Shown: positions 19,192-20,768 of the stretch, one piece after another
Layout: the number at the start of each line of letters is the position of its first letter
Numbering within the stretch: position 1 is the stretch's first letter
IMG/VR virus record: IMGVR_UViG_3300000062_000006
Location: 182 to 64,181 of that record
DNA: 64,000 bases
Direction: 5' to 3' (one strand)
Source: a virus
Made by a program: the position numbers and the translations under genes
Notes under the pieces: model-generated
The model's database searches: none
Told to the model about the DNA's origin: nothing
What the model saw: the letters and a program-made list of their open reading frames with translations, nothing else

Positions 19192-19239
19192 ACTTCATAA
19201 GTGGGTTAGACCCTTACGCTTAGGCGTTACAGCACACCC
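19192..19239 (-). ncRNA. Structured element copy B (candidate tracr/scaffold RNA)
   Basis: GGGTGT-GCTGTA-ACGCCT-AAGCG-TAAG-GG-TCTAAC-CC-A-CTTA-TGAAGT; homologous to 20722-20768 with compensatory changes. Confidence 0.65.
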
Positions 19240-19248
19240 TAAATATGT

Positions 19249-20367
19249 TTATAAGTCTTTCTTTTCGACCTCTATGCCATACATTTTAGCCTTATATTTA
19301 ATCTTCTCAATAAGACCATAATAAGACCAATTCCTAAGAAGAAACATATCTTCTTTTGCTTCACACTCTTTTTGTTTCTGATTTACAAGAATGATTGTTG
19401 CTGAATTATTGCGTTTGGCTGATTCAACAAGCAGTTTACTATACAAGTGAAGTTTTGTATTTATATAGTTCAATTCCTTTTCGTGAAATCTATCAAGACT
19501 CTGCGTTTTCCTTTTTCGTCCTTTGCCGCCTTTATTGTATCGTGCAGCAATTTGAGTGCGCCTTAACGCTTCTTGTATCTGTAATCGACCATGAAGAAAC
19601 TCCTCTTTGTCTCCAATGGAATAACCTTTGCAATCTTCGTCTAAATCAATGCCTGTTTTCCCATTTGAATAAATAATTGGAGTTATCGGAGAAAGAAAAG
19701 CATAGGTGCATCGCTTTTCATCTAAGACTATATCTTTCTTAGGGATATCGACACATAAATAAAGAAACATCTTTTTCCTATCATCATCTATCGCCAAAGA
19801 GGATGAACACATTTTGTATTCGCCACTTATGCAGCGGTCAATAATAGCTTTATTGTTACTTCTATCATGACCTAAATGGGTGGCAAATGGGATTCCAAAC
19901 AGAACAAAGTAAAACCGCTTACTTTCATTATCCCAATGTATGTTCGACAATGCTTTTGCGCTAAACGGCATTGGGATATTGTTTTTATATGTTCTAAGGC
20001 TTGCTTTGCCTATGTAAATATCCTTTCGGGTTTCCTTATAAGAATTACCAACAGCTTGGTTTAGACAGGTATAAATATCAGAAGGAACTTTGCCTTTAAG
20101 CATATCCGCTAACACTCGGTAAGTTGTGTTCTGCTCGCTCATCCCTTTACCATCTTTTATTATGTCTTTCACATAGAACTTGTCTTTTATTTCATCTTTC
20201 AGATAAACGAAGTCCTTTATCTGTTCTTGACAAAATTTGTGTGCAACAATGGTATTAGCCGCTTTTCTTACAAGGTCTCGCCATTGGTACACTGTATGTA
20301 CCATTTCTTTTTTAAGGTCGTTATCCGCTTCGGACACGAACACTTGAATTTTTCTTGTAATTATCAT
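19249..20367 (-). CDS. Nuclease-dead TnpB/Cas12f-like RNA-guided DNA-binding protein, CRISPR-associated
   Basis: MIITRKIQV N-terminus, SLRTYKNNIPMPF, bridge helix IGDKEEFLHGRLQIQ, LRNWSYYGLIEKIKYKAKMYGIEV. RuvC-I reads YAFLS (no Asp), RuvC-II reads IILVNQ (no Glu), zinc finger and RuvC-III absent. Confidence 0.85.
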   Translation of the reverse strand: MIITRKIQVFVSEADNDLKKEMVHTVYQWRDLVRKAANTIVAHKFCQEQIKDFVYLKDEIKDKFYVKDIIKDGKGMSEQNTTYRVLADMLKGKVPSDIYTCLNQAVGNSYKETRKDIYIGKASLRTYKNNIPMPFSAKALSNIHWDNESKRFYFVLFGIPFATHLGHDRSNNKAIIDRCISGEYKMCSSSLAIDDDRKKMFLYLCVDIPKKDIVLDEKRCTYAFLSPITPIIYSNGKTGIDLDEDCKGYSIGDKEEFLHGRLQIQEALRRTQIAARYNKGGKGRKRKTQSLDRFHEKELNYINTKLHLYSKLLVESAKRNNSATIILVNQKQKECEAKEDMFLLRNWSYYGLIEKIKYKAKMYGIEVEKKDL

Positions 20368-20383
20368 ATACTTTTACATTATT

Positions 20384-20683
20384 GCTGTGTGTGTTTATCA
20401 AATTATAGGTTGTTACACCCGATGGCATCGCAAAACTATTCAACGTAAGGCTGTATATCCTTGTCAAATTATAGGTTGTTACACCTGAGCGATGCCGATA
20501 AGCAACGTACACTGTGCTGTATATCCTTGTCAAATTATAGGTTGTTACACCCTTTCAACCATCACTACGATTTGTTCAGTAGCTGTATATCCTTGTCAAA
20601 TTATAGGTTGTTACACCATGTTCATTGGCGGATAGTTGTCCTGCTCCGCTGTATATCCTTGTCAAATTATAGGTTGTTACACC
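20384..20683 (-). CRISPR. CRISPR mini-array: 5 repeats (36 nt), 4 spacers (30 nt)
   Basis: Repeat GCTGTATATCCTTGTCAAATTATAGGTTGTTACACC at 20450, 20516, 20582, 20648; 5-mismatch terminal copy at 20384. Four distinct spacers of exactly 30 nt. Confidence 0.97.
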
Positions 20684-20721
20684 AGAGCATACAATATCTA
20701 TCTGATTTTAAATTGATTAGA

Positions 20722-20768
20722 ACTTCATGAGTAGAAAAACTCTCACGCTTAGGTTGTACAGCCAACCC
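20722..20768 (-). ncRNA. Structured element copy A in array leader (candidate tracr/scaffold RNA)
   Basis: GGGTTG-GCTGTA-CAACCT-AAGCG-TGAG-AG-TTTTT-CT-A-CTCA-TGAAGT; two hairpins. Confidence 0.65.

Follow-up and report, generated by a model that had tools for sequence, protein, structure and literature searches.

We analyzed a 64,000-nt window of the virus record IMGVR_UViG_3300000062_000006 (a 65,365-bp virus genome, 93% complete), in which a 48-base element occurs twice beside a gene for a nuclease-dead Cas12f protein (dCas12f) and a small CRISPR array. All components of the locus lie on the minus strand and follow each other in this order: element copy A, a linker, the array, dcas12f, element copy B, a degenerate repeat, a 32-nt segment, and a tRNA-like element. 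Copy A (20722..20768) was identified by its fold and by a covariance model, R1, described below (58.7 bits), and comprises a first hairpin (P1), a short linker, a second hairpin with a bulged A (P2), and the start of a 3' tail; the R1 match reaches on to 20717, and a putative anti-repeat, GUUCU, lies at about 20719-20723. A further linker of 38 nt (20684..20721) leads from copy A to the first repeat of the mini-array (20384..20683), which is composed of five repeats of 36 nt and four spacers of 30 nt. The four intact repeats (20648-20683, 20582-20617, 20516-20551, and 20450-20485) share the 3' end AGGAU-A-UACAGC, that is, the segment facing the anti-repeat, one unpaired A, and the target of the pseudoknot considered below. 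The gene-proximal repeat (20384-20419) is degenerate; it ends in CACAGC and retains neither AGGAU nor UACAGC. The dcas12f open reading frame (ORF; 19249..20367) encodes 372 aa, and copy B (19192..19239; R1 match at 19187-19239, 55.6 bits) starts 9 nt past its stop codon. Five bases after copy B, it is joined by a degenerate repeat (19151..19186) that retains AAGGAC-A-UACAGC. The next 32 nt (19119..19150) form the putative fixed guide of a stand-alone single guide RNA (gRNA) and are abutted by the tRNA-like element of 127 nt (18992..19118), which matches the full Rfam tRNA model with 40.6 bits.

The 372-aa protein is, judged from sequence comparison, a nuclease-dead Cas12f. It matches the PDB entry 9n9c ('Nuclease-deactivated Cas12f') from end to end, with the same C-terminal stop (E 2.4e-81). 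In the alignment with the active Al3Cas12f (9nzo, E 2e-45), the RuvC-I motif GVDLG of the latter is aligned to YAFLS and the RuvC-II motif IQMERL to IILVN; both the RuvC-I Asp and the RuvC-II Glu are replaced, and the protein ends before the zinc ribbon and RuvC-III. NCBIfam models point to the TnpB/Cas12f family with scores below their cut-offs. More than 1,100 homologues of the protein, mostly Bacteroidales-type, were found in metagenomes.

When either element copy is folded alone, the structure of lowest energy consists of the same two hairpins (-15.3 and -14.9 kcal/mol, with z of -2.3 and -1.7). The copies differ at nine stem positions, and pairing is preserved at all of them and broken at none: (i) in P1, two pairs are swapped on both sides (U-A to G-C and G-C to U-A), and one U-A is replaced by U.G, and (ii) in P2, two pairs are swapped on both sides (G-C to A-U and A-U to G-C). 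No difference is found in loop 1 (GCUGUA), in the linker (UAAGCG), or in the tail (UGAAGU), and loop 2 is the only part that varies freely. Thus, the duplication with compensatory stem changes reported by an initial annotation of the sequence was confirmed. The same annotation held that loop 1 complements the end of every repeat; GCUGUA is indeed the exact complement of UACAGC, the end of the four intact array repeats and of the degenerate repeat at 19186..19151, but the terminal array repeat, ending in CACAGC, departs from this rule. Descent of the element from a repeat, also raised in that annotation, is weakly supported: in the window, the element and the 5' half of the repeat are alike in about 10 of 11 letters, GUA(A)CAACCUA, whereas at other loci the likeness is limited to the hexamer G[G/C/U]UGUA. 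No Rfam family corresponds to the element, and the two copies are the only R1 sites in the 64-kb window (E about 1e-11).

To describe the element beyond the window, 119 loci encoding homologues of the protein were fetched (30 viral contigs, 9 genomes, and 80 metagenomes) and searched with regular expressions and then with R1, which was built from 41 copies. R1 revealed 153 copies of the element in 72 sources, the two in the window and 151 in 71 others; apart from the window, the sources are loci nearly all of which encode a homologue of the 372-aa protein. All 153 matches are on the strand of the gene; a locus usually has two to five of them, located upstream as well as downstream of the gene. 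Eight of the nine R1 matches in three whole genomes of 2.9-3.6 Mb are at dcas12f loci, and the ninth is 35 kb from one. Among 137 distinct copies, 95.9% of the stem cells in P1 and P2 are paired, and sliding the 3' partners lowers this value to 40-46%; the covariation score reaches 0.679 versus less than 0.09 in the slid control, and both-side changes occur in 12 of 15 pairs. Covariation in homologues, the check that the initial annotation had named, thus comes out in its favour both here and for the loop and repeat end treated below. Given this conservation and covariation, what is duplicated in the window is a genuine structured RNA that is conserved, rather than a DNA motif.

Two forms of a larger module recur across many loci, leading either into arrays or into a single repeat. 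In the long form (about 121-124 nt, the commonest length class in the homologues), about 37 nt of linker separate the element from a full repeat; copy A belongs to this form, with 121 nt counted from its first G to the end of the repeat. In the short form (about 86-90 nt), to which copy B belongs (89 nt), there is next to no sequence between the element and the repeat. An A-rich tract and a conserved ...AUAUUC/GGG junction precede the element (166 copies; in the window, for example, at 20769-20780), with C at position -1 in 72% of copies and U at -2 in 60%. This junction may be an RNA processing site.

Comparison of the array-linked modules supports, by covariation, a predicted pairing of the P1 loop with the last 6 nt of the repeat. 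For 79 such modules, the repeat end was set from array periodicity, independently of the loop sequence. Eight complementary loop/repeat-end combinations were observed: GCUGUA/UACAGC in 35 modules, GUUGUA/UACAAC in 12, GUUGCA/UGCAAC in 4, GCUGCA/UGCAGC in 3, GCUGUG/CACAGC in 3, GUUGGA/UCCAAC in 2, and GUUGUG/CACAAC and GUUUCA/UGAAAC in one each; variants with G.U pairs occur as well. On average, 5.81 of 6 positions are paired, compared with 5.41+-0.03 when the loops are shuffled among modules, and none of 2000 shuffles reached the observed value. RNAalifold applied to the long form recovered P1 and P2 and nothing else, and the long-range helices were therefore tested explicitly. In structure-blind MAFFT alignments, the pseudoknot is paired at 97.2% in the short form (18 sequences, both-side changes at three positions) and at 99.1% in the long form (37 sequences, both-side changes at two positions), in which the two strands are about 110 nt apart. 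The docking of the GCUGUA loop on the repeat end, first put forward in the initial annotation, agrees with these values. A search for loop complements further downstream that allowed G.U pairs was uninformative, as reversed-sequence controls matched in 101 of 161 cases. The repeat's 5' end was also tried as the main partner of the 3' end and rejected (mean of 4.29 of 6 positions, compared with 5.81 for the P1 loop), and it is a possible competitor in cis.

A further long-range helix, absent from the initial annotation, is formed by the 3' tail of the element (after ...GAA) and the repeat segment immediately before A+UACAGC. Examples of this anti-repeat pairing are GUUACCUA with UAGGUGAC, AUACCAU with AUGGUAU, and AUAGG with CCUAU. 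The pairing energy of a tail with its own repeat is -8.3 kcal/mol versus -4.8+-0.24 kcal/mol after permutation, and none of 1000 permutations was as good. At loci with several modules, the own repeat was better than the repeat of another module in 35 of 40 comparisons, and both-side changes were found in 7 of 8 anti-repeat pairs. Complementarity to the repeat, a hallmark of trans-activating CRISPR RNA (tracrRNA), is therefore present in two helices, of the tail and of the loop, that both covary and are both short. In total, four helices are supported by covariation: P1, P2, the pseudoknot, and the anti-repeat.

A variant of the same arrangement occurs beside a nuclease that appears to be intact. 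A 288-kb IMG/VR viral contig (L028) encodes, at 2995-4284, a 429-aa relative (36% identity) with the complete RuvC D/E/D set and a zinc ribbon. In a second region of this contig (4347-4760), the element has an insertion of about 45 nt in the P2 loop and a GUUGGA loop, and it precedes an array of five repeats with UCCAAC ends. By its motifs, this relative is probably a very small, active Cas12f that works on this minimal scaffold. Since it shares the leader element, the scaffold design would predate the loss of nuclease activity.

The guide-RNA family and the system have already been published, and the phage element is a further example. According to the accessible text of Hoffmann, Wiegand et al. 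(Nature 2026, PMC13472631), (i) the sequences for the dCas12f gRNAs, which are 85-105 nt long, lie just downstream of dcas12f, and each RNA begins with the scaffold and has the guide at its 3' end, (ii) the dCas12f relatives use guides of 14-16 nt, (iii) RNA immunoprecipitation sequencing (RIP-seq) of the sigma-E-linked systems showed no separate tracrRNA species, (iv) a CRISPR-linked dCas12f cluster without a sigma-E link has 'putative gRNAs ... upstream of CRISPR loci', and (v) one locus mixes chimeric gRNAs with arrays. For the cryo-electron microscopy structure of the Flagellimonas taeanensis (Fta) dCas12f-gRNA complex (PDB 9N9C), the accessible text describes four paired regions and the guide (bioRxiv 10.1101/2025.06.10.658880). 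At four loci of bacterial genomes (L121, L123, L124, and L127), we found the element directly downstream of dcas12f genes whose products are 38-41% identical to the window protein (R1 24-41 bits); next come ...AUAUACAAC, some 11-14 nt, and a T-run. At L124, the one of these four loci that was checked, a 269-aa protein with sigma-70 r2/r4 domains is encoded directly upstream of dcas12f. We therefore identify the element with the 5' scaffold of the guide RNAs published for dCas12f, a homology that is drawn from the bacterial dcas12f loci and not from the Fta gRNA sequence.

The phage locus shares with the published dCas12f gRNAs the protein family and its truncation, as well as an RNA that is immediately downstream, on the same strand, and scaffold-first. 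It differs from them in several respects. Firstly, it is phage-borne, and the operonic extracytoplasmic function (ECF) sigma factor of the dCas12f-sigmaE systems was not found: sigma-70 region 2 (PF04542) has no match in the 65-kb phage genome, PF08281 yielded only sub-threshold helix-turn-helix-like matches in it, and the neighbouring ORFs lack sigma domains. Thus, we assign the phage to the published dCas12f cluster without sigma factors. Secondly, it combines a regular 36/30-nt array with a separate chimeric guide. Thirdly, its scaffolds are 89 or 121 nt long, compared with about 66-76 nt in the published gRNAs. Fourthly, its likely outcome would be repression, as opposed to the sigma-dependent activation of the dCas12f-sigmaE systems. 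Finally, the loop pseudoknot and the anti-repeat covariation are not described for the published gRNA in the accessible text, although the P1-P4 regions of that gRNA may include both.

RNA data were available for one homologous locus, L083, a rumen locus that is present in two sheep-gut metatranscriptome runs. One RNA contig covers the 3' end of the gene, the downstream element, and the array, and both flanks have zero depth, which argues against plain DNA carry-over. Short repeat-spacer-repeat contigs at L083:2305-2395 and 4270-4373 have their starts at the 3' edge of the neighbouring element or just past it. Their word depth is 5-8 times that of the dcas12f gene and is inflated by repeated words. 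The contigs denote presence in RNA libraries and not RNA ends, strand, or level, and holes in their coverage prove nothing.

We consider it very probable that the element is the conserved 5' scaffold module of phage dCas12f guide RNAs, one that grips the 3' end of the repeat. The RNA folds into P1, P2 with its bulged A, and a short single-stranded tail; the tail serves as an anti-repeat of 5-8 nt for the repeat segment just upstream of A+UACAGC, and the six-base P1 loop pairs with UACAGC itself. The latter pairing makes a pseudoknot that abuts the guide on its 5' side, an arrangement known from TnpB omega-RNAs and Cas12f guides. Together, the tail helix and the loop pseudoknot would position the guide. 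Copy B with its degenerate repeat and the following 32 nt or so would constitute a hard-wired, cis-fused chimeric single guide just downstream of the gene. Copy A is the array leader; it would adopt the same fold with repeat 1 and spacer 1, and it may also scaffold the inner repeats (spacers 2-4) in trans. The loaded protein is expected to bind, rather than cut, DNA that matches the guide, and, because the phage has no sigma factor, repression would be the likeliest outcome. With respect to the tracr-like scaffold proposed in the initial annotation, the structured scaffold is upheld by covariation; the word tracr implies a separate RNA that acts in trans, and the anatomy is that of a cis fusion, from which the inner repeats may also be served in trans.

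Several observations weigh against the scaffold model. The anti-repeats of the window itself are weak: GUUCU of copy A forms 5 bp with AGGAU, two of them G.U, and in copy B four of five positions are paired, with one A.G mismatch. The window repeats can also fold on themselves, the 5' GGUGUA pairing with five of the six bases of UACAGC, and the inner repeats could therefore be independent of the element. No sequencing run with RNA of this phage is listed for the window, and at L083 two of the three elements lack a listed RNA contig, while the arrays right after them are covered. This gap would fit either cleavage that frees a small element RNA or low abundance. Finally, no target was identified for any of the guides, so that repression is what we infer. 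In the 65-kb phage genome, there is no convincing self-target for the four spacers, the pseudo-guide after the array, or the guide of copy B, and exact 20-mers of the four spacers have no match in IMG/VR. The first 18 nt of the copy B guide match exactly an unrelated 44-kb viral contig (L128:5376-5393), 11 nt past the ATG of a small ORF whose ribosome-binding site is strong. This candidate was not counted as a target, as the match ends at 18 nt and, by our own estimate, 1-2 such hits are expected by chance.

Two sets of observations concern the ends of the guide and the leader of the gene. The tRNA-like element begins exactly 32 nt past the repeat end of the stand-alone guide. ARAGORN calls no tRNA at this element, and a full Rfam match without an ARAGORN call implies an insertion of about 40-55 nt. 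Among 60 homologous loci, ordinary tRNA genes are found in nine, in eight of these on the strand of the locus, and several of them follow shortly after an array (L039:5099, L085:4594, and L069:4015). The tRNA-like element may set the 3' end of the guide through RNase P cleavage. At the other end of the gene, the degenerate last repeat of the array abuts the ribosome-binding region of dcas12f (20368-20419, minus strand). In four homologues (L066:2411, L050:2406, L055:1526, and L056:2394), a minimal scaffold, consisting of the element, 4-9 nt, and the loop complement, is situated in the 5' untranslated region of dcas12f, 45-80 nt before the ATG, and the 'guide' is the gene's own leader. These scaffolds suggest autoregulation, in which the protein would bind the mRNA or the locus that encodes it.

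In Cas12f and TnpB structures, the final bases of the repeat, beside the guide, take part in a short pairing of the pseudoknot type. Comparison of the element with these systems revealed both shared and distinct properties. Similar to the tracrRNA:crRNA pairs of type V-F (Un1Cas12f1, AsCas12f, and Al3Cas12f, 9NZO, PMC13186708, the last being the active match of the window protein), it provides stems and an anti-repeat from an RNA partner of the repeat. Also in common is the effector, which is a dimer in relatives. The type V-F tracrRNAs are transcribed separately, measure about 130-150 nt, and form long repeat:anti-repeat duplexes, whereas here the scaffold has about 50 nt, is joined to the first repeat, and contacts it through 5-8 and 6 bp. 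With TnpB omega-RNAs and the guides of TldR (Wiegand et al., Nature 2024), the element shares the layout of one RNA that has its scaffold 5' and its guide 3', and a pseudoknot made from the bases immediately 5' of the guide; as in TldR, the protein is nuclease-dead, C-terminally truncated, and would be used for DNA binding. In contrast to TnpB omega-RNAs, the element starts past the stop codon and overlaps neither the 3' end of the ORF nor a transposon end; TnpA and insertion sequence ends are absent, the neighbours lack transposase domains, and a CRISPR array is present.

The main alternative is a true tracrRNA of about 50-60 nt, released as a free RNA, whose tail and P1 loop would pair in trans with all repeats of the pre-crRNA; its fusion in cis to the first repeat would then reflect genomic position alone. 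This possibility, which partly overlaps with the scaffold model, seems to us rather unlikely but deserves to be taken seriously. One leader scaffold faces four spacers, leaving the inner repeats without a partner in cis, and the tail and loop together offer 11-14 bp to any repeat. The nuclease-active L028 system has the same leader element before five repeats, and presumably uses all of its spacers; the closest active Cas12f with a solved structure uses a tracrRNA plus a crRNA (PMC13186708). The L083 contigs whose starts coincide with the 3' edge of two elements, or lie just past it, point in the same direction, although contigs cannot define RNA ends. However, no free-standing element was seen: nearly every copy is followed by a repeat end at about 88, 113, or 122 nt, and copy B and many homologues lead into a single repeat, which implies single guides. 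Furthermore, the tails match their own array better than the others in the locus, for which use in cis is the simplest explanation, and the sigma-E-linked systems, in the accessible text of PMC13472631, showed no tracrRNA species by RIP-seq.

Still more tentatively, and in our opinion improbably, the locus could represent a living intermediate that links the dual-RNA and the single-guide type V systems, in which one scaffold of about 50 nt is used both fused (copy B) and in trans (copy A). Copy B would then have its 3' end set by the tRNA-like element, and copy A would be released from the leader and load spacers 2-4. If so, the phage could run multiplexed, cleavage-free CRISPR interference against its host or rival phages.

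A DNA-level role of the element, as a promoter or protein-binding site that serves the array and the sequence downstream of the gene, is very improbable. The element does stand where an array leader or promoter would be expected, and two elements of L083 lack coverage by RNA contigs; yet the double changes in 12 of 15 stem pairs and the two long-range helices maintain RNA pairing rather than DNA sequence, and every copy is co-oriented with the gene. Moreover, the Bacteroidota -7 motif (TAnnTTTG) was not found in or before the element, and sigma-70-like matches in the region are no commoner than in shuffled sequence. The notion of a decayed leftover of a duplicated repeat or leader without a function of its own, to which the likeness of the P1 3' strand and linker in the window to the 5' part of the repeat (about 10 of 11 letters) and the degenerate repeat adjoining copy B might lead, has next to no credibility and is already refuted by conservation and covariation, with more than 150 copies across proteins 36-70% identical, invariant unpaired positions, covarying stems, and occurrence at sigma-E-linked loci, where the RNA was experimentally found to be the guide (accessible text of PMC13472631).

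The genomic neighborhood of the phage locus includes genes for a DUF4494 protein (20837-21289, minus strand) and a phage antirepressor with Rha/KilAC domains (22485-23210, minus strand), which places dcas12f in an early or regulatory region of the phage. On its other side, a reverse transcriptase gene (PF00078, E 3e-16; region 15842-18497, minus strand) adjoins two paralogous ORFs of 171 and 185 aa that have a near-identical segment in common (...GGCGAGACCCGCTACCCGCG...), an arrangement consistent with a diversity-generating retroelement.

The new component of this work is a model, resolved to base pairs and backed by covariation, of the way in which the smallest known Cas12f-type scaffold would grip its repeat, through a 6-bp pseudoknot and an anti-repeat of 5-8 bp. 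The module stands before arrays and single guides at well over a hundred loci, of which at least 30 are on viral contigs and one belongs to the 429-aa relative that is probably nuclease-active. The model bears on how tracrRNA/crRNA pairs collapse into single guides and is useful for the design of very compact programmable DNA binders. For the phages themselves, dCas12f arrays without a sigma factor raise a testable question, namely, what these phages silence.

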